From an uncultured Rhodospirillaceae bacterium (GTDB taxonomy: Bacteria > Pseudomonadota > Alphaproteobacteria > UBA8366), in NCBI GenBank assembly GCA_913043025.1, contig CAJWLM010000002.1:22777-86776 (forward strand): 64,000 bases of DNA, written 5' to 3'. The position numbers and the translations under genes were made by a program. Positions 3-30,662 of this stretch are shown here, piece after piece. Numbering within the stretch: the first letter of the stretch is position 1; each line of letters starts with the position of its first letter. The notes under the pieces were generated by a model that had not been told where the DNA came from, ran no database searches, and worked only from the letters and a program-made list of their open reading frames with translations.

Positions 3-821
3 GTTCCTGATGATGTATCTCGCCATCTTATTAGCTCGGGTCGGATAAGAAAAATGAGCTTTACAGGCTCAATACCCGTAGGAAAGCACCTCGCAAAGGT
101 TGCGGCCGATCATCTGGTGCGTTGCACATTTGAACTTGGTGGGCATTCGCCTGTACTAGTTTTTGATGATGCAAATATAGACACGGTTATTAAGCACATG
201 GTCCCCTTTAAATACCGTAATAGTGGCCAAGTTTGCATTTCACCTACTCGCTTTTACGTGCATGAAAAAGTGTATGATGATTTTGTGAGCCGTTTTACAG
301 AGGCGGCAAATGCAATGCAGGTGGGAAATGGTATGGACGCAAAAACGCAGATGGGACCAATGGCTAATGGTCGTCGAATAGTTGCGATGGAAGAGTTTAT
401 GCAAGATGCCCGCGACCATAATGTGGAAATAACAACAGGCGGCAATCGAATTGGCAATCAAGGCTACTTTTGGGAACCTACAGTGCTAGCCAATGTACCT
501 GAAGAAGCCATGATAATGTCAAAAGAGCCATTTGGGCCTTTGGCACCGATAGCTAGGTTCGAGGATTTTGATGATGTTGTGGCACGTGCCAATCGACTTC
601 CCTATGGACTTGCATCATATTGCTACACATCTGATCAAAAACGCGCTGATCAGTTAGCAGAGGCGCTTGATACCGGAATGGTTGGGGTCAACAATTTCAT
701 GATCTCGATGCCGGAGACCCCTTTTAGTGGTGTGAAGGAAAGTGGTTATGGCTATGAGAGTGGGGCAGAGGGACTCGAAGTATATCTTCATCATAAATTT
801 GTTTCGCAAACCGGTATGTAG
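3..821 (+). CDS. NAD(P)-dependent aldehyde dehydrogenase, succinate-semialdehyde dehydrogenase-like (5' truncated by window edge)
   Basis: Motifs SFTGS, ELGGHSP, NSGQVCIS (catalytic Cys), EPFGP; the frame is open from position 3 up to the ORF-track ATG at 54. Confidence 0.9.
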   Translation, partial: VPDDVSRHLISSGRIRKMSFTGSIPVGKHLAKVAADHLVRCTFELGGHSPVLVFDDANIDTVIKHMVPFKYRNSGQVCISPTRFYVHEKVYDDFVSRFTEAANAMQVGNGMDAKTQMGPMANGRRIVAMEEFMQDARDHNVEITTGGNRIGNQGYFWEPTVLANVPEEAMIMSKEPFGPLAPIARFEDFDDVVARANRLPYGLASYCYTSDQKRADQLAEALDTGMVGVNNFMISMPETPFSGVKESGYGYESGAEGLEVYLHHKFVSQTGM

Positions 822-21830: not shown

Positions 21831-23000
21831 TTAAAAAAGCCCCATGCCCGCAACACCGGTTTCTAAATCCATTCTTTCTACAAGTTCCCGGCCAACGAAA
21901 TTGCGTAGCGTTTCAGTAGTTCCCCCACCAAGGGTTCCGTAACGTACTCCTCGATAATTGCGTGAAACGGCAAAGTCATCAAGAAAACCGTAACCGCCAT
22001 GCAATTGAACACCCTCACTGCAAACCCTTATCGACATTTCGTTTACATAGATTTTGGCCATTGCAGCTAGCGTTGGATTGGGGAAAGGCTCAGCGGTTGC
22101 TGCAGCTCTATACAAAATAGACCTGCCAGCCTCAATTTCAGTGAGCATGCTTGCTACCTTCCAGCGCATACCTTGAAAGTCACCAATTGAATTACCGAAG
22201 GCTTTTCGATCCCTCATGAAGCGAATGGATTCCTCAAGAGAGGCTTCCGCCATGCCCAAACAAATTGCCGGATTGAGGCACCTTTGGGTATTAAATGCTC
22301 CGAGTAACTTCCTTAACGATCCCTCACCTAAGCCTAAATTTTCTATGGGCACCTCTACATTTTCAAATCTTACGTCGGCCAAATTTTCGCCACCCATGGT
22401 ATGATAACAGGCATCAGCAGTCAGTCCTTTAGTGCCTTTTTCTACAAAAACACAACCGATTCCTTTCGTTCCGGGCGCGTTGTTGACCCGAGTAAAAATT
22501 ACAAAAAGGTCGGCTTCTTCTGCCCGACTGATCATAGTTTTTGCGCCATTTAAAACCACTCGATCATTCATTACAGATGCATTGGTTTTCATGCTACCTA
22601 GGTCTGTGCCACAATCAGGTTCTGTCATACAGATAGCTAGGATACATTTTCCTTTGAGCAACTTGGGCAAGTACTTTTCTCGAAGTTCGTCGGAACCATA
22701 ATGAGAAAGAATCCTGCATTGAGTGCCAACCTCTCCCAAGACAGCCATTGCAGTGACATAACAGCCTTTAGCAATTTCCTCGAGTACCAGCACTGTGTCG
22801 AGGACACTGGCTCCGATGCCGCCATATTCCTCCGGTACGGCCATGCCAAGGATCCCAATCTCTGCTAAAGCATCCATATTTTCATATGGGAATTCTCCAT
22901 CGAGCCACCTTTTAGCGTTGGGTTCGATTACATTTTTACGAACTCGCTTTACTGTGTCCAACATCATCCGTTGGTCTTCGGTAAGTTCAAATTGCAACAT
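21831..23000 (-). CDS. Acyl-CoA dehydrogenase-fold protein lacking the canonical catalytic Glu (desulfinase-like)
   Basis: ACAD motifs PEEYGG, AICMTEP, NGAKTMIS, HGGYG; FNTQR and TLGGGT at the two usual Glu positions. Confidence 0.8.
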   Translation of the reverse strand: MLQFELTEDQRMMLDTVKRVRKNVIEPNAKRWLDGEFPYENMDALAEIGILGMAVPEEYGGIGASVLDTVLVLEEIAKGCYVTAMAVLGEVGTQCRILSHYGSDELREKYLPKLLKGKCILAICMTEPDCGTDLGSMKTNASVMNDRVVLNGAKTMISRAEEADLFVIFTRVNNAPGTKGIGCVFVEKGTKGLTADACYHTMGGENLADVRFENVEVPIENLGLGEGSLRKLLGAFNTQRCLNPAICLGMAEASLEESIRFMRDRKAFGNSIGDFQGMRWKVASMLTEIEAGRSILYRAAATAEPFPNPTLAAMAKIYVNEMSIRVCSEGVQLHGGYGFLDDFAVSRNYRGVRYGTLGGGTTETLRNFVGRELVERMDLETGVAGMGLF

Positions 23001-23061: not shown

Positions 23062-24363
23062 TCATAGGCTACAAGTTCTGAATCCAGCCAGCACATCGCG
23101 CCGTTCTGGCGTATAAAAATTTCGGTAACGAGCTGTGATCATTCGACTGCGAGTGGCCCAAGCACCACCACGCAGTACTTTTGTCTCGTAAAATACTGGT
23201 TGGGAGTAGTCTTTGTAGGCATCTGGTGAGAAGCCATCGAAGGGTGTAAAAGTACTTGCGGTCCACTCCCAAACATTTCCTATCATTTGACGGCACCCAA
23301 ATGCGCTGTCGCTTTTTGGCAGCGCGCCGACGTCTATCGGGCTCAGAGCGTAGCCATCAAGATTAGCTAGGCTTGCATCGCACGGAGCATCTCCCCAGGG
23401 AAATTTTCGTTTTGATTTAGTAAGCACGTTACCATCTGGGCTGACCTCGCCAAGCGCAGCAGCTTCCCACTCTGCTTCTGAAGGTAAGCGACGTTTAGCC
23501 CACAAGCAATATGCATTCGCCTCATACCAGTTGACATGGATGATGGGCTGGTTCAGGTGTAGGTCTTTAATCGTGTCAAAGTGACGTACAATCCAGTCGC
23601 CTTCGCCGGAACGTTGCCAATAAATGGGACACTCTGCTTTCTCAGTTTGGCGCCAATTCCAACCTTCATTACTCCAAAATTCACGTGTAAGATATCCTCC
23701 ATCAATAACAAATTCCCTGTAATCTCTGTTTGTTACCGGTGTCTTGCATATGTTAAATGGCTCCAAAAGAACGGGATGCGCCCATTTTTCATTATCAAAA
23801 ACGAACCGTTCATTTTTTGTTGCGCCTAATTCGAAATATCCCCCTGGCACCAAACTATCACTGGGAACCATGTCGGCATTTAAAAATGCTTTTGATTTAC
23901 TAAAAATAGGCTTGGGGTATGCAAGATTTTGGCGGCTGTAGGTATAAGCTTCGGTGTGCATATCTTCGTGGAACGTAGCAAACTGATAAATATAGCTGTC
24001 AATTTCACTAGCGGTACCATGTCCCAAACGAGAAAGGCACCGGTCGAGAATACATTCTATGTACTCCATGATCTTATTCATCGGCAGAAGTGGCAAATCC
24101 CACCTTACTTCGTGAGGAATTTCAATTGAATCATAGATATTGTCAAATTCTGCGTTGTATGGGGTGTAACCGTAAAGGTCGCGAAGAATAAATTTTTCAT
24201 AAAACCAAGCCACGTGCCCGATTTCCCAACGAAGTGGATTAACAGTCCGAAGTTTAGGCCCCATAAGTTGACTTGCGTCCAAACCCGATATTAATTCGGT
24301 GGATCGCTTGTGAGCATCTTGAATGATAGTAGAGAGAAAAGAAACGGGAACTGGTTGTGTCAT
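23062..24363 (-). CDS. senA: Selenoneine synthase SenA (EgtB-like: DinB_2 + iron-binding + FGE-sulfatase domains)
   Basis: VNPLRWEIGHVAWF, HEDMHTEA, FDNEKWAH, RRLPSEAEWE, GNVWEW, YRNFY, GFRTC; adjacent to a SenB glycosyltransferase and selD. Confidence 0.85.
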   Translation of the reverse strand: MTQPVPVSFLSTIIQDAHKRSTELISGLDASQLMGPKLRTVNPLRWEIGHVAWFYEKFILRDLYGYTPYNAEFDNIYDSIEIPHEVRWDLPLLPMNKIMEYIECILDRCLSRLGHGTASEIDSYIYQFATFHEDMHTEAYTYSRQNLAYPKPIFSKSKAFLNADMVPSDSLVPGGYFELGATKNERFVFDNEKWAHPVLLEPFNICKTPVTNRDYREFVIDGGYLTREFWSNEGWNWRQTEKAECPIYWQRSGEGDWIVRHFDTIKDLHLNQPIIHVNWYEANAYCLWAKRRLPSEAEWEAAALGEVSPDGNVLTKSKRKFPWGDAPCDASLANLDGYALSPIDVGALPKSDSAFGCRQMIGNVWEWTASTFTPFDGFSPDAYKDYSQPVFYETKVLRGGAWATRSRMITARYRNFYTPERRDVLAGFRTCSL

Positions 24364-24390
24364 ACTGCAGGCTCTTATTAATATAAGTAT
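24364..24390. promoter_or_regulatory. Candidate bidirectional promoter between senA and senB
   Basis: 27-bp spacer with CTTAT-N4-ATAAG inverted repeat; overlapping TANNNT hexamers TAATAT (+, 24379-24384) and TATATT (-, 24385-24380). Confidence 0.4.
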
Positions 24391-25359
24391 ATGAATATTA
24401 CTCTTATCACACCGGCTGGTCATCTTGCCAAAAATGGTAATCGAACCACAGCGTTACGTTGGGCAAAAATATTAACTATGCTCGGCCACAAAGTACAAGT
24501 TAACACGTCATGGGATAGAAGACCCGCTGATTTGATGGTTGCAATCCATGCTTGGCGTAGTGCTAAGTCGGCTAGGTTGTTTCGGAAAGAGTTTCCTGAA
24601 AGCCCCCTGATCATTCTATTATCAGGCACCGACATTTACAAATTCCAATATACCCACCCAAAGGTAACTCTGTATTCAATGAAAATCGCTAATGCTTTAG
24701 CTTGTTTGCATGATGAGGTGTGTCATTCTATACCTTCTCAGTACCGGCATAAATTACATACTATCCACCAGTCAGCATTACCATTAGCCAAAGCCCGCCG
24801 GCCATCTAAGCGAAATTTTGACATTTGTGTTGTGGGAAATCTTCGTGAAGAGAAAGACCCACTCCGTGCTGCATATGCGGTGCGTAACCTGAACAACACT
24901 TCTCGTCTCCGGGTAATTCATCTTGGTAAAGCACACACGCCCGATTGGGCTACGAAAGCTAGGACTGAGATGGCGCGAAACAATCGCTACCGATGGCGTG
25001 GAGAGGTAAAGGCTTGGGAGGTCCGGCGCGAATTTGCAAAGACACGGTTAATGGTTTTAAGCTCAATAATGGAAGGAGGTGCAAATGTTATCTCCGAAGC
25101 AATTGCGGCGGGGGTGCCTGTAATAGCATCAAAAATTGAAGGATCGGTTGGGCTTCTCGGGTCAGATTATGCTGGCTATTATGAGGCTGGAAGTACTGAA
25201 GATTTGCGCCGCGCACTATTGCGCGTTGAAAATGAGCCAAAATTTCTTGCCCATTTGTCATACCAGTGTGAAGCTAGAAGGTATCTTTTCACCATTGAAA
25301 GGGAGAAAGAGGAATGGTCCTCCCTTTTGAGTGCTATAAGTCTAAAAAATAAATCTTGA
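24391..25359 (+). CDS. senB: Selenosugar synthase SenB (GT-B glycosyltransferase)
   Basis: NGNRTTALRW, HAWRS, LSGTDIY, NLREEKDP, SSIMEGGANV; located between senA and selD. Confidence 0.88.
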   Translation: MNITLITPAGHLAKNGNRTTALRWAKILTMLGHKVQVNTSWDRRPADLMVAIHAWRSAKSARLFRKEFPESPLIILLSGTDIYKFQYTHPKVTLYSMKIANALACLHDEVCHSIPSQYRHKLHTIHQSALPLAKARRPSKRNFDICVVGNLREEKDPLRAAYAVRNLNNTSRLRVIHLGKAHTPDWATKARTEMARNNRYRWRGEVKAWEVRREFAKTRLMVLSSIMEGGANVISEAIAAGVPVIASKIEGSVGLLGSDYAGYYEAGSTEDLRRALLRVENEPKFLAHLSYQCEARRYLFTIEREKEEWSSLLSAISLKNKS

Positions 25360-25375
25360 TGAGCTTCCACAACGG

Positions 25376-27640
25376 TTATGCTGTTAATGTGATGGGTTCC
25401 AAAGTCCCCGTATTCTCGGTCACTGTTCCAATCACTGATGTCTCACGATAACCGGCTATTTTTAACTCGTCGACACAGGCGCCAGCATTCTCTGCTGGCA
25501 AACTCGCTAATAGGCCTCCCGAAGTTTGAGGGTCGAAGATAATTGGATAAAGGGGTTCCTGAGCGGCCCTGTCCACATTCCTTATAGCGCGTCGGAGACG
25601 CACATTCTGAGGTTGAAGAGAGCTAAAGATTCCATCTTTGATTAAATCAATGGCTCCGTCCAATACGGGAATCTTACCTAACTCAAGAGTTACGTCTACC
25701 TGTGAGGGCTTTGCCATTTCGACTAAATGCCCCAGAAGGCCAAACCCAGTCACATCAGTGCAAGCATTTGTTTTATGCTTGAATAAAATATCAGCGCCTG
25801 CCTTGTTAGACTGAAGCATTGATGACAGAGCAGCATGCACCCAGTTACCGCGAGCTTTGTGTCGCATATCAGCAGCAAAAAGAGTTCCAGTCCCGACCGG
25901 CTTGGTAAGCACTATTTTGTCGCCAACTTTCATGCCGGCCTTTCGCAGAATGCGATCCTTGTCGATTAGCCCGTTAATAGCAAAGCCAAGCGACATTTCT
26001 GCGCCCTCGCTAGTGTGTCCACCAACTAGCGCGGTGCCGGTTTCCTGCAAAACCTTCATGGCTCCAGCCATCAGCTGTTTTAAATCATCTTCAACCTTAT
26101 CCTCAAGTCCAAAGGGCAGAGTGACTATCGAAAGTGCAGTCTGCGGTTCTCCACCCATAGCGAAAATATCTCCCATTGAGTGATTGGCAGCAATCTGGCC
26201 AAAGACATAAGGATCATCTATGAATGCACGGAACGCATCTACTGTATGTACCATTACTTTATTTCTCGGCACCTCTACCACGGCGGCATCATCTGGCTCG
26301 TGAAGGCCAACTAATACATCAGAGCGTTCCACGGGGTTTAGTTGTTGAAGTGCTCGTTCTAAAACCGTAGCTCCAACCTTGGCACCGCAGCCACCGCAGC
26401 GCATAGCTATAGCCGAAATTTCTTTTATTACATTTTGATCAGCTAATCCCTTTGACACATTTGGAGATTTTTCTTCGTCCATATCACGAAGTTCATTAAA
26501 CTTTTTTACAAACCGTCGATCAATCCAATTTTTCCAATGCCAAATTAACTTGCCTTCGGCAGCCCAATTTGATCGTGAGGCAACCGCATATTTATCTCCG
26601 GTGGTAATGAGGCTTAGAAATTGATGCTGAGGGTTATAAGGTTTTAGAGGTTTTCCGAGAAGTGCGCGCTTGAGATTTCTAGTAAGTGGGGGTCCTTGTC
26701 TTACTGCAAATACGCCTGATTTAGGACGAGGGTGATTTACCACATCGGCAATATCCCCAACTGCGAATATGCCGGGATGAGAAATTGACTCCAGTGTGTC
26801 ATGGACTTTTACAAAGCCTTTAGGAGAAACCGCTAAGCCACTCTCTTTCAACCAATTTTGGGCGCTCGCCATAGTGACCCAAAGAATCTCTTCCAGCTCA
26901 TGAGTAGTGCCGTTACTGCATGTGATGATATTCGGCTCGACTTCTACTATTTTATGATCTGCATGAAGGATGATCCCACGCTCGGTTAAAATACGTCGGT
27001 ATTTTTCTCTGACTTTACTATTATGAGTGGGCAAAATATCATTTGCAGTAAACAAGTGAAATTCTACATCGTGCATCTGGTCTTTCTGTGCACGCAGAAG
27101 CTGTTTCAATCGGAATTGAATTGCCAGTGCGATTTCTACACCTCCGGCGCCACCCCCGACTATGCCTACTCTGGTTTTGCTGCATGCTGCTAACACACGT
27201 TCGCGAATCTGATTCCAATGGTCAACAAACCCGTTGATTGGTTTGACTGGCATGACATTATTTTCAGCTCCCAAAACGGACGTAGTGTTGGGAGCTGAGC
27301 CGATATTGATTGAAAGAAGGTCGTACTTTACAGGCGGGCGGTCTTTACAAAAAATTTGGTTTGATTTGGGATCAACCATCGTTACTTCGTTGCAGAAGAA
27401 TCTCGCTTTTGCAAAGCGTGCTAAGGGAGCTAGGTCTATGTGAGACTCATCAAATGAGTAATGCCCCGCTATAAAGCCCGGGAGCATACTTGAGTATGGC
27501 GCCTGCAAGTCACGGCAAATCAAAGTTAGGCGAACGCCCGGAATGGGCTTCATCCCAAATTTTTTAAGGACCGTGATGTGACTGTGACCGCCACCAATTA
27601 GGACAAGATCTTTGAGTATTGGGGTTTCAGCACTTTCCAT
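25376..27640 (-). CDS. selD: Selenide, water dikinase SelD (SenC) fused to an N-terminal pyridine nucleotide-disulfide oxidoreductase domain
   Basis: N-terminal LVLIGGGHSH, IVGGGAGGVE, KSGVFAVRQG; C-terminal RCGGCGAK (Cys, not Sec), DDAAV, GGHT, TKPVGTG, TDVTGFGLLGHL, DPQTSGGLL. Confidence 0.93.
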   Translation of the reverse strand: MESAETPILKDLVLIGGGHSHITVLKKFGMKPIPGVRLTLICRDLQAPYSSMLPGFIAGHYSFDESHIDLAPLARFAKARFFCNEVTMVDPKSNQIFCKDRPPVKYDLLSINIGSAPNTTSVLGAENNVMPVKPINGFVDHWNQIRERVLAACSKTRVGIVGGGAGGVEIALAIQFRLKQLLRAQKDQMHDVEFHLFTANDILPTHNSKVREKYRRILTERGIILHADHKIVEVEPNIITCSNGTTHELEEILWVTMASAQNWLKESGLAVSPKGFVKVHDTLESISHPGIFAVGDIADVVNHPRPKSGVFAVRQGPPLTRNLKRALLGKPLKPYNPQHQFLSLITTGDKYAVASRSNWAAEGKLIWHWKNWIDRRFVKKFNELRDMDEEKSPNVSKGLADQNVIKEISAIAMRCGGCGAKVGATVLERALQQLNPVERSDVLVGLHEPDDAAVVEVPRNKVMVHTVDAFRAFIDDPYVFGQIAANHSMGDIFAMGGEPQTALSIVTLPFGLEDKVEDDLKQLMAGAMKVLQETGTALVGGHTSEGAEMSLGFAINGLIDKDRILRKAGMKVGDKIVLTKPVGTGTLFAADMRHKARGNWVHAALSSMLQSNKAGADILFKHKTNACTDVTGFGLLGHLVEMAKPSQVDVTLELGKIPVLDGAIDLIKDGIFSSLQPQNVRLRRAIRNVDRAAQEPLYPIIFDPQTSGGLLASLPAENAGACVDELKIAGYRETSVIGTVTENTGTLEPITLTA

Positions 27641-27642
27641 GA

Positions 27643-29142
27643 TTAATGAGTATCCAATGAGGTTTGTAAACGTAATCTACTGCGGATCGACCGCGACAGA
27701 ATATCAATAAATATATTTAATAGGGCAGTTATAATAATTAACACGATAGCACGGTCGAAGCGAATGTCTGCAAAGGCGGAGTCAACGAAAAACCCAAGTG
27801 TTTTCACTCCCAGTATTCCAAGGATTGCTGTTTCACGAAAAATGACTTCCCAGCGGTAAAATAAAAAAGCTAAAAACTGCGGGTAAATTCGAGGAAGTGT
27901 TTCATACGAATAGAGATTTATGCCTTTGGAGCGGTCGGGCCGCAGCCGAAGGTGATTGCTAAAGTTACCGATGAGATGCCCAATTATCGCAGCATTGTGG
28001 AAAGAGAGGGCTACGACGGCAGGGAACATAGACGGTCCTAATAACTGTAACAAGACGAATGCGATTACATATTCTGGTGTCGAACGGATAACGACTAAAA
28101 TAGTGTGTCCCGCTAGCCGACTTTTTGGGCCAAAAAAGAGTGATGAAATGAGCGGGAAGAACAGTAATGATAAGATCCCTGTTGCCGCCAAAGCTATCAT
28201 CGTCAGCACAATTGTGTTGAGTATCCCAGGCAATGCTTCATTAAGAATAAGAGTCTGAAACCAAAACCAAGTTTCAAGCATAATCGGTATTGTTATGGTT
28301 TCTACATTCCGAATAGGAGTTGGCATGATGTCATGTGCAAAAAAACGCCAAGCGTTTGACCATGTCATCGCGCCGCTCTCTGGTAATACAACGCACGCCG
28401 CTATTAAAAGCACTGGAATTGTTTCTCGCCTCATCCACTTCCGCACTGTCGAAATTAGAACATAAAAAACGATCAGGAGTGCTGATAGGTCAGAATAGAG
28501 ACCTTCTTTGTAGGCAGTTTCTAAATAAAACCCCAGCGTAGGAAGGCCAACAAACCCTAGCACAGCACTCGAACGAAGGCCGCACTCTAGTCGATAGAAA
28601 GAATATGTTTTCACGTTTGACCAGACACCTGGTAATTTAGCATAAAAAAACAATGAGACAATTGATGTGCCATTGGGAATAGCTTGCATAGGGGCTGGGT
28701 CAGCCTCTTCTAAAAGCTCAGCGTAAACCTTCGCACATATACCGCTGTAAGGGATTGCAATAGCAAGTACACCCGTCAATGCAGTAAGCCCGAAAATTTG
28801 CAGGAAGATTAATGCCCAGAATAATTCGTGCACAGCACGAACAAAGGCACAAGCGACCCGCACTGCACGGTAATGAAAAATGACCGCAAGCAAAAAACCT
28901 GTAAAATTTGCTAGCGCTACACCTAGAATGGCAAATGCTAACGTCATCATTAAGGCCTCAAATATTTGCTTCCATTTGGCGAAGTTTGGTTGGATCAAAC
29001 CCATGCCCAGTCTTTTCATTTCTGGCCATGGATCTTGAGTGGTTATCTCGATATCGGCAACGAGAAGGCAGCCAAACGCCACCAAAAGAAACCAAAGGCT
29101 GGTTCGCACTAGCGGAGATTTTGGAATTAGGGGTGTTGACAC
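27643..29142 (-). CDS. ABC transporter permease, PhnE/PtxC-like, two fused TM domains
   Basis: Two repeats with EAA-like loops: YRLECGLRSSAVLGFVG and YRWEVIFRETAILGILG; very hydrophobic; GTG at 29142 follows the ATPase stop. Confidence 0.85.
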   Translation of the reverse strand: MSTPLIPKSPLVRTSLWFLLVAFGCLLVADIEITTQDPWPEMKRLGMGLIQPNFAKWKQIFEALMMTLAFAILGVALANFTGFLLAVIFHYRAVRVACAFVRAVHELFWALIFLQIFGLTALTGVLAIAIPYSGICAKVYAELLEEADPAPMQAIPNGTSIVSLFFYAKLPGVWSNVKTYSFYRLECGLRSSAVLGFVGLPTLGFYLETAYKEGLYSDLSALLIVFYVLISTVRKWMRRETIPVLLIAACVVLPESGAMTWSNAWRFFAHDIMPTPIRNVETITIPIMLETWFWFQTLILNEALPGILNTIVLTMIALAATGILSLLFFPLISSLFFGPKSRLAGHTILVVIRSTPEYVIAFVLLQLLGPSMFPAVVALSFHNAAIIGHLIGNFSNHLRLRPDRSKGINLYSYETLPRIYPQFLAFLFYRWEVIFRETAILGILGVKTLGFFVDSAFADIRFDRAIVLIIITALLNIFIDILSRSIRSRLRLQTSLDTH

Positions 29143-29143
29143 A

Positions 29144-29800
29144 TCAATTGCCGTAAAGTTCAGCAAGGTCTGAGGAACTCATACCGTCTGATTGGCGATC
29201 TAGGATGATTTTACCGGACGAGAGCCCAATGATCCTGCTGCAGAAACTTAATGCAAGCTGCACGTCGTGCATAGCTAGCACAACTGTTTCATGATTAGTG
29301 GTAATAGTTTCCATCACGTTTCGTGCCTGGTGTTCATCGACTGCAGAAACTGGTTCATCTCCAAGAAATATATTACAACCCTGATACAATGCTCTGGCTA
29401 TACCCGCACGTTGCTGTTGACCTCCTGACAATTCTCCGACGGGAGAATTAATTTTGTCAGTAAGCTCCAGTTGTTTGAGGACTTTGAGCACAGCATTTCG
29501 TTCATTAGACAAAGGGCGTATAAGGTTAGTCAGATTGTAAAGAGTTGAGTTCTGATGGAGTCTTCCGATGAATGTGTTATGGAAAACAGAGAGATTAGGT
29601 ACTAATCCGAGGTTCTGGGGTAAAAACGCACATTCCTCAACCTGAGTATCATAAAGTAAGCGAAGCAGTGTCGATTTTCCGGCACCGCTTCGACCTACCA
29701 ATGCAATTTTCTCGCCTTGTTCGACTTCCAGCGAGACTTTATCGAGAACTCGCTTACCCTTATATGAGGCACAAGCCTTATTAAGTTTGAACAACACCAC
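29144..29800 (-). CDS. ABC transporter ATP-binding protein, PhnC-like
   Basis: Walker A GRSGAGKS, signature LSGGQQQR, Walker B FLGDEP, H-loop AMHD. Confidence 0.9.
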   Translation of the reverse strand: MVLFKLNKACASYKGKRVLDKVSLEVEQGEKIALVGRSGAGKSTLLRLLYDTQVEECAFLPQNLGLVPNLSVFHNTFIGRLHQNSTLYNLTNLIRPLSNERNAVLKVLKQLELTDKINSPVGELSGGQQQRAGIARALYQGCNIFLGDEPVSAVDEHQARNVMETITTNHETVVLAMHDVQLALSFCSRIIGLSSGKIILDRQSDGMSSSDLAELYGN

Positions 29801-29807
29801 AGTTGCA

Positions 29808-30662
29808 TCAATCGATCAGACCAATTTCTCTCGCCGTGTCTAAGATTGGTTTAAAATCTTTATTAACAGCTTTGATGAAACTTTTTCGGGGAAATGAACG
29901 AAGAAGAACAGGGTCTTTCATGCCGATTAATGCCTTCTGAACTCTATTGGTGAATCCTTTACCAAATTTTTTGTCAGTATCCCCACGGATGGACCAATTA
30001 TAGTCTGGATATCCAGGCGTTTTCCAAATGATAGATACCTTCTTTTGATCGATCTTACCCGCATTAAGCTCTTTTTTGTAAACCTTAAAATTAACAGCAC
30101 CTACTTCGTAGGCGCCGCTATTCACCAGTGCAACCGTGCGCGAGTGACTGCCACTGAAGCCTACTCTTTTAAATACTTTATCAGGAGTTTTGCCAAATGC
30201 TTTTCTGATGTGGAACTCTGGCATCAATCGGCCTGAAGTGGACCCCTTGGAACCAAAAGTAAACGTCTTTCCAGCCATCCCCTTCGGAAAACTTAAACTT
30301 GGTTTAAGGCCACTTGATTTGTGTGCGATGAAATAAGTTTCGAAGAACGGGTCCTCAAATCCCTGAGCAATTGCTTTTGATCCCTTTACAAGCTGTCTGG
30401 CCCTGACTCCAGAAAGGCCTCCGAACCAAGCAAGTTGTACTTGGTTATTCCGAAAGGCGGTAACCGCTGCAGCATATGATTTAACAGGTATATATTTCGT
30501 TTTAACAGAAAGCTCTTTCTCTAGGTAAACAGCAATTTTATTAAAACGTTTTTTCAGCGCGCTTTCGTCTTGGTCTGGTATGGCTGTAAAGACAAATTCT
30601 GTAGCTTGTATCTGGCTCGTGAATCCAAGTATTAAGGCCGCTAACATTATAAATTTTTTCAT
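29808..30662 (-). CDS. Periplasmic substrate-binding protein, PhnD-like; putative selenate ABC transporter family
   Basis: Signal peptide; FTAIPDQD, AWFGGLSGVRAR, FTFGSKGSTSGRLMP, GFSGSH, TPGYPDYNW match the selD-associated PhnD-like family as recalled. Confidence 0.8.
   Translation of the reverse strand: MKKFIMLAALILGFTSQIQATEFVFTAIPDQDESALKKRFNKIAVYLEKELSVKTKYIPVKSYAAAVTAFRNNQVQLAWFGGLSGVRARQLVKGSKAIAQGFEDPFFETYFIAHKSSGLKPSLSFPKGMAGKTFTFGSKGSTSGRLMPEFHIRKAFGKTPDKVFKRVGFSGSHSRTVALVNSGAYEVGAVNFKVYKKELNAGKIDQKKVSIIWKTPGYPDYNWSIRGDTDKKFGKGFTNRVQKALIGMKDPVLLRSFPRKSFIKAVNKDFKPILDTAREIGLID

Follow-up and report, generated by a model that had tools for sequence, protein, structure and literature searches.

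A plausible compact divergent promoter pair between the selenoneine genes senA and senB of an uncultured Rhodospirillaceae bacterium

Bidirectional promoters have been described in bacteria in which the -10 elements of the two strands overlap symmetrically, with A-11 and T-7 of one strand pairing with their counterparts on the other and with 18 bp as the commonest spacing of the two transcription starts (Warman et al., preprint 10.1101/2020.01.31.928960; NAR 2026, PMC12825309). The distances between divergent starts quoted as preferred in the accessible parts of these texts are 29, 23, 18, 12, 10, and 7 bp (10.1101/2020.01.31.928960) or 18, 10, and 23 bp (PMC12825309). Another described kind of compact promoter is that of leaderless genes, for which a TANNNT motif about 12 bp before the start codon is reported as the bacterial signature (Zheng et al. 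2011, PMC3160421), and leaderless genes with a -10 element adjacent to the open reading frame (ORF) appear in a study of Deinococcus-Thermus (PMC12340547) and in a map of transcription starts of M. tuberculosis (PMC3898074). In this work, we analyzed the 27-bp spacer between two divergent genes of the selenoneine pathway, senA (selenoneine synthase) and senB (selenosugar synthase), in a 64,000-nucleotide stretch of DNA of an uncultured Rhodospirillaceae bacterium (assembly GCA_913043025.1, contig CAJWLM010000002.1, positions 22,777 to 86,776 of the forward strand). The whole stretch is called the window hereafter, and all coordinates refer to it. A compact divergent promoter pair, with one -10 element in the spacer and the other inside senB, is a plausible reading of this locus.

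The PRM-cI region of phage lambda is a known case of two divergent promoters that lie close together, one of them producing a leaderless regulator mRNA. Further phage immunity and restriction-modification control regions of this type are found in the literature, e.g., that of PY54 (PMC4488713; see also PMC5333194). The senA-senB region would resemble them in having two close divergent promoters, both predicted, of which one gives a leaderless mRNA; it differs in that its products are biosynthetic enzymes and that no operator is supported, whereas the phage and restriction-modification regions encode regulators and have known operators.

As regards the selenoneine genes themselves, the founding preprint (Kayrouz et al., 10.1101/2022.04.13.486033) mined genomes for genes overlapping selD. 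The window shares with the sen cluster of Variovorax paradoxus described there the clustering of SenA, SenB, and a SelD-type gene; in contrast to that cluster, senA and senB of the window are divergent and senC is a fusion gene convergent with senB. The words "promoter," "divergent," "operon," and "orientation" are absent from the body text of the preprint, whose figures or supplements may show gene orientations. No account of sen gene regulation was found in the literature searched, in which, as far as the accessible text goes, the papers joining selenoneine, senB, and promoter appear to deal with heterologous expression and purine catabolism or to be a review.

In the window, senA occupies 23062..24363 of the minus strand (433 aa from the ATG at 24363) and senB 24391..25359 of the plus strand (322 aa). 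Written in plus-strand letters, the CAT at 24361-24363 is the senA ATG, and the senB ATG is 24391-24393, which leaves 27 bp (24364-24390) between the two divergent start codons. Both proteins exceed the cut-offs of curated profiles, i.e., 470 bits against 420 for SenA (NF041186) and 385 bits against 300 for SenB, a GT4 protein (TIGR04348), and a selenophosphate synthetase of the SenC/SelD type adjoins them, as in a sen gene cluster. The start of senB has no possible upstream alternative, since an in-frame stop stands four codons 5' of its ATG in 10/10 close relatives; SenB residues 3-29 are conserved, and the family profile also opens at residue 3. For senA, the longest ORF opens at an ATG at 24423, the sole alternative start, which is absent in seven of the ten close relatives; the ATG at 24363 is preserved in 27/27 related genomes, and the SenA profile match opens about two residues past it. 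Both start codons are thus firmly placed and the 27-bp spacer is real, in agreement with the preliminary description of this DNA, in which the two starts had been reported as back to back. The spacer measures 27 bp in all ten sequences of the window's clade.

The arrangement that we propose is as follows. A sigma-70-type -10 element, TAATAT (24379-24384, plus strand), would direct RNA polymerase to start at the A of the senB ATG (24391), giving an mRNA that is leaderless, or has a leader of at most 1 nt, and that would be translated without a Shine-Dalgarno sequence. Transcription of senA would depend on a second -10-like hexamer, located on the minus strand at 24400..24395 within senB codons 2-4 and accompanied 17 bp away by a candidate -35 element (ATGACC). 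The predicted senA start lies near 24388, and nearly the whole spacer would become the senA 5' leader, bearing the weak purine motif AAGAG. The footprints of the two polymerases would overlap almost completely, and their open complexes would share 24386-24393, so the two orientations should exclude each other. The 27-bp gap would in this way lie at the center of a very compact control region that serves two divergent genes for enzymes of one pathway. Read from sequence comparisons, the whole picture, i.e., both promoters together with the competition between them, is tentative, and we place it somewhat short of probable.

Such an arrangement would resemble the bidirectional promoters mentioned above in its divergent transcription, its pseudo-symmetric -10 elements, and its use of one polymerase orientation at a time. 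Unlike in those promoters, the -10 elements proposed here are 10 bp apart and do not overlap, they lie outside the pair of starts (about 3 bp apart), and one of them falls within the coding sequence of the partner gene; a start spacing of about 3 bp does not appear among the distances that the accessible text of the two sources gives as preferred. With leaderless bacterial genes, senB has in common a TANNNT motif about 12 bp before its ATG and the lack of a Shine-Dalgarno sequence. It would differ in being an isolated case, whereas leaderless genomes use this mode widely.

Two sets of loci were compared. The first comprised SenB in 27 related genomes, in all of which senA is divergent and the aligned starts are 19-32 bp apart, and the second comprised 80 more loci of Alpha- and Gammaproteobacteria, of 582 candidate loci detected. 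Altogether, 107 SenB loci were considered: senA is divergent in 97 of them, lies downstream on the same strand in two, and is absent from the flank sequence in eight, three of which have less than 210 nt of upstream sequence. Left out of the counts were L028-L030 (weak GT4 paralogues), the eight loci without a senA match, five loci with an aligned senB start other than ATG, GTG, or TTG, and duplicates recognized by identical upstream sequence. Lineages were counted on a quick IQ-TREE tree of SenB; for the comparison of gap lengths the loci were dereplicated at 80% SenB identity, and gaps of 45 bp or less were classed as short. In addition, six further members of the window's clade, all with 27-bp spacers, were retrieved from metagenome contigs by a pattern scan anchored on the coding flanks only. 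A close alignment anchored on the senB ATG contained 13 sequences, 11 of them distinct, from the window's genus, its sister genus, the six metagenome contigs, and a third clade.

The plus-strand hexamer TAATAT stands at -12..-7 from A24391, as had been described, and the start at the A of the ATG is predicted from the 7-nt distance to T-7. It matches TATAAT at four of six positions, T-12, A-11, and T-7 among them. The candidate senB -35 element is GTGTCA (24357..24362, plus strand), which gives a 16-bp spacer and 8/12 consensus matches in total and overlaps senA codons 1-3; TTGTGT (24355-24360, plus strand) is an alternative with an 18-bp spacer and 7/12 matches, as counted by hand. The conservation of the candidate senB -35 element is inseparable from the coding constraint on senA.

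In the close alignment, all 13 sequences, i.e., 11/11 distinct spacers, agree at positions -12, -11, -10, and -7 relative to the senB ATG, the hexamer taking the forms TAATAT, TAAAAT, TAAGAT, and TAAAGT. Positions -6..-1 occur in six forms among the ten 27-bp spacers, and conservation is poor in most other columns. When the window is compared with the sister genus, only 8/34 and 9/27 four-fold sites are identical, as are 11 of the 27 spacer positions; neutral sequence is therefore randomized at this distance, yet the four hexamer positions hold. This profile is the one expected of a -10 element under selection, and the comparison supports such a role for the hexamer.

The wider set of loci points in the same direction. 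In 11 of the 86 distinct divergent sen loci whose senB start is canonical, TAnnnT ends at -7 of that start, and the 39 other offsets examined in the same loci have 0-6 occurrences each (mean 1.7). The 11 loci belong to about four lineages on the SenB tree, seven of them to one clade and the rest to three other places. Gap lengths across these lineages range from 22 to 107 bp, which means that the position of the hexamer is fixed relative to the senB ATG and not relative to the senA start. The senB start is ATG in all 11, and GTG or TTG in 22 of the 75 others. Thus, the leaderless geometry of senB pointed out in the preliminary description has gained comparative support from the invariance of the key positions and from the peak at this offset, and the region shows the sequence features expected of a leaderless promoter, namely a -10-like hexamer ending about 7 nt before the start and an AUG without a Shine-Dalgarno sequence. 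The calculated duplex with the anti-Shine-Dalgarno sequence (a general sequence, no 16S gene having been found in the assembly) amounts to -1.0 kcal/mol for senB, weaker than for 75% of the genes in the genome, and to -2.1 kcal/mol for senA, the genome median being -3.3 kcal/mol. The earlier statement that neither gene has a clear Shine-Dalgarno sequence agrees with these values, with the addition that senA keeps the weak purine motif AAGAG.

We also considered the conserved TAA as a mere in-frame stop or as the end of an 8-codon upstream ORF. This was rejected, as independent lineages have TAC, TAT, or TAG at this place and the peptide would not be conserved.

Several observations weigh against a leaderless senB promoter. 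The hexamer is not rare when a single sequence is considered (TAnnnT falls at exactly -12..-7 in 4.5% of spacer shuffles), and the seven of 11 hexamer loci that share one clade make the counts overstate independence. There is no genome-wide leaderless signature: among 1985 ORF starts, TAnnnT ends at -7 in 3.3%, and neighboring in-frame offsets give 2.7-4.2%, so senB would be an exception. As the genome median shows, weak Shine-Dalgarno sequences are common here, and the lack of one is not distinctive. Both candidate promoters, that of senB and that of senA, reach only 8/12, and the window contains about five such sites per 600 bp on each strand. A consensus scan for promoters and terminators of 23800-24900 flagged neither of the two candidates and nothing in the spacer, its matches occurring at chance rate; an Rfam scan of 23500-25500 at E-values up to 1 gave no matches.

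An alternative is that there is no promoter in the spacer and that both genes are transcribed from promoters deeper in the coding region of the partner, with long, mutually antisense 5' leaders and weak or no Shine-Dalgarno sequences, the conserved spacer hexamer being an AU-rich leader element or having another role. The lack of a leaderless class in this genome and its commonly weak Shine-Dalgarno sequences fit this alternative. The RNA evidence is also consistent with this explanation. The RNA libraries that match the region are two oligo-dT marine RNA-seq runs, in which 9-12% of the words of the region were found, as contigs. A 318-nt contig from run X2 covers 24331-24648, extends across the spacer and 33 nt into the senA side, and has the hexamer in its TAAAAT form; if this contig represents RNA, some transcript reads through both predicted starts, which also speaks against the promoter pair. 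The contig carries no strand information and has a depth of about 3x, its library was made with oligo-dT, and DNA carry-over is possible; contig ends cannot show a transcription start. Two other runs (X3 and X4) gave no contig on the region, and none of the matches listed for run X1 lies on the spacer. Candidate sites for such outlying promoters are present, as -10-like hexamers at 24322-27 (plus strand) and 24469-74 (minus strand) are each kept in 10/10 members of the clade, and the only nearby match of the promoter scan is on the minus strand at 24641..24613 (9/12). However, the conservation of these flanking hexamers is uninformative, because they are located in coding sequence, where constraint on the protein is inseparable from promoter function. 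Furthermore, exactly T, A, A, and T with a free middle is not a pattern that an AU-rich enhancer would impose, and it is hard to reconcile long leaders with the distance from hexamer to senB ATG that is held in lineages of such different gap lengths or with the consistent ATG start of the hexamer loci. On balance, we regard the long-leader explanation as unlikely, and the proposal that the -10 element of the senB promoter is in the spacer, with transcription starting at the senB ATG and a leaderless mRNA, as mildly probable on the comparative evidence.

A second pair of -10-like hexamers, on both strands, was noticed at 24322-24328 inside senA codons 12-14 and is likewise kept in 10/10 members of the clade; here, too, a promoter role is inseparable from the constraint on the protein.

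The evidence for the senA promoter comes mainly from the coding sequence of senB. When all loci were scanned on the senA strand, the dominant -10-like signal was found over positions 10..5 of the senB ORF, mostly as TAATCT or TAATTT. Of the 93 distinct loci, 57 have minus-strand TAnnnT at this place, against 18 for the second-ranking offset; in the window, it is the TAATAT at 24400..24395. The candidate senA -35 element, ATGACC (24418..24423, minus strand), is separated from it by 17 bp, and the two together have 8/12 consensus matches. Judged from the hexamer position, transcription would start at 24388, plus or minus 1-2 nt, which leaves a leader of about 25 nt. This leader would contain AAGAG (24376..24372, minus strand), which resembles a weak Shine-Dalgarno sequence and stands 8 nt upstream of the senA ATG; its CTCT core (plus-strand letters) is conserved in the clade; in L003/L111 the corresponding sequence is GAGAGG, and the duplex energy reaches -6.4 kcal/mol.

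Two of the three key bases of the embedded hexamer fall where senB has a free choice, and the choice is strongly biased. Codon 3 of senB (Ile) is ATT in 61/84 loci, and 24.5 would be expected from the Ile usage of each gene; codon 4, when it encodes Ser, is AGY in 42/43 (11.4 expected). The signal is associated with short gaps. After dereplication, the hexamer at +3 or +4 is present in 41/47 short-gap clusters vs. 6/19 with longer gaps, A at ORF position 10 in 43/47 vs. 8/19, and ATT at codon 3 in 35/45 (12.7 expected) vs. 9/17 (6.2 expected). The hexamer is absent in both co-directional loci and in four of the five loci whose upstream flank is of full length and contains no senA. In these four, Ser at codon 4 is still encoded by AGY, and codon 3 is ATA or ATC, with ATT in none of the four. 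The codon bias, together with the gap-length pattern, is what would be expected if a senA -10 element were written into senB. A mirrored plus-strand -10 element inside senA codons 2-4 was also looked for and dismissed, as no positional peak exists there.

Some points tell against this promoter as well. Phylogeny confounds the contrast between short-gap and long-gap loci, and the translation of senB may likewise benefit from AU-rich early codons. Across the loci, no base (purine) preference was found at the predicted senA start. A family-wide search for the -35 element gave at least 4/6 matches in register in 20/66 short-gap loci, and one off-register control gave the same 20/66. With these points taken into account, a senA promoter whose -10 element lies in senB codons 2-4, with a start near 24388 and a leader of about 25 nt bearing a weak ribosome-binding motif, appears to us evenly balanced between probable and improbable.

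The preliminary description had placed the senA promoter elsewhere. It proposed that one symmetric bidirectional promoter occupies the spacer, its -10 elements overlapping at 24379-84 (plus strand) and 24385-80 (minus strand), with starts at 24391 and 24373 and a leaderless senB; the senA leader would then measure 10 nt. The minus-strand hexamer, TATATT (24385..24380), is where it was said to be, and the 7-nt rule applied to it leads to a minus-strand A at 24373, 18 bp from 24391. The 18-bp rule that it invoked is in print in the sources named at the outset, and this pair of hexamers fits the 18-bp class of bidirectional promoters in sequence: the two are offset by one base, A-11 and T-7 are paired, and both predicted starts are A. 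The hexamer matches the consensus at 5/6 positions and, with GTGATA as -35 element, at 9/12, and the plus-strand half is conserved. Nevertheless, the count of 9/12 is reached only with a 19-bp spacer, which is poor. Most of the minus-strand half simply mirrors the other: its A and T come free because of the symmetry with the plus-strand hexamer, and its own T-12 (a plus-strand A at -6) is present in only 7/11 distinct spacers, so that selection is visible on one half and not on both. Moreover, a start at 24373 would cut the conserved AAGAG out of the senA mRNA, and senB codons 2-4 contain a minus-strand hexamer that is better conserved. A mirror promoter starting at 24373 is therefore not supported, and we consider the single symmetric promoter quite improbable.

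The inverted repeat CTTAT-N4-ATAAG (24374..24387, with arms at 24374-78 and 24383-87) had been suggested as an operator. It is present as described, and either this repeat or the larger symmetry TAATAT-N10-ATATTA (24379-24400) could in principle be bound by a dimeric regulator controlling both genes; inverted repeats exist in the window and in its nearest relatives, and a site that covers both predicted starts would be in a good position to repress transcription. However, a 5+5 repeat arises in 21% of shuffles of the spacer, i.e., at chance level; the right arm of the palindrome is altered in L112, and neither symmetry is found in the sister genus. The sen pathway literature searched, as far as its text is accessible, names no regulator. 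The operator is accordingly a very improbable element of this region, and the conservation of the spacer applies to the invariant plus-strand hexamer and does not extend to the palindrome, to the minus-strand T-12, or to most of the other columns.

Leaderless genes with an ORF-adjacent -10 element and overlapping divergent promoters are both known kinds, of which the sen locus would be a further example. What would be unusual is the position of one -10 element in the coding sequence of the partner gene, under visible codon constraint, and a leaderless case in a genome otherwise without this mode. If the promoter pair is real, a control region of about 70 bp would set the expression of both carbon-selenium bond-forming enzymes, a natural promoter element would be written into a coding sequence with a measurable cost in codon usage, and a leaderless gene would have arisen in a genome that does not otherwise use such genes. 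It is also of practical relevance that the senA and senB promoters probably overlap the neighboring ORF, which matters when these genes are expressed or their boundaries are drawn. A more general possibility is that, across many Proteobacteria, senB codons 2-4 are doubly used, as protein code and as the -10 element of a divergent senA promoter, with Ile ATT and Ser AGY held by the second role. The promoters would then be "crossed," each -10 element lying in the transcribed region of the other and the starts being about 3 bp apart, the orientation of the polymerase would set the ratio of the two carbon-selenium bond-forming enzymes, and senB would also have turned leaderless in one clade, to which the window belongs. 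We consider this extension speculative and rather doubtful.

Further genes were located as well. The senC-like gene (25376..27640, minus strand) is convergent with senB and encodes a fusion of a pyridine-nucleotide-disulfide oxidoreductase (TIGR03169, 483 bits, cut-off 310) with SelD (TIGR00476 selD, 306 bits, cut-off 125). It appears last in a minus-strand gene run (25376-30662) that also includes a phosphonate-type periplasmic binding protein (PF12974), an ABC ATPase, and a 507-aa ORF without a Pfam match; this run may be a selenium uptake and activation operon. A homolog of EgtD (TIGR03438, 395 bits, above the cut-off), which would supply hercynine, is encoded on another contig (C24:4510-5412), and the gene for hercynine supply is therefore unlinked to senAB. 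On the other side of the spacer, an acyl-CoA dehydrogenase gene (21831-23000, minus strand) follows senA in the same orientation, opening 61 bp past its stop; the two may be co-transcribed.

In the course of the comparison, some loci with other arrangements were noticed. Two loci from gammaproteobacterial metagenome-assembled genomes (MAGs), L110 and L054, have 1341 bp and 730 bp of extra DNA between senA and senB, respectively; in L110, a conserved upstream motif flanks the extra DNA at either end, as if the latter had been inserted. L110 belongs to a long-gap clade (L081, L097, L098, L109, and L110; 82-91 bp) in which a conserved motif of about 35 bp precedes senB, as a candidate operator plus promoter unlike the arrangement in the window. 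In the window's own genus, the SenB of L023 (genome G003) is only 52% identical, groups with another clade, and is preceded by an unrelated spacer, to be explained either by a different origin of this sen locus or by contamination of the MAG. Finally, L046 comes from a record titled as a Bathyarchaeota MAG, yet its SenB pairs with that of a Chromatiales MAG at full support, which points to a binning error or gene transfer.

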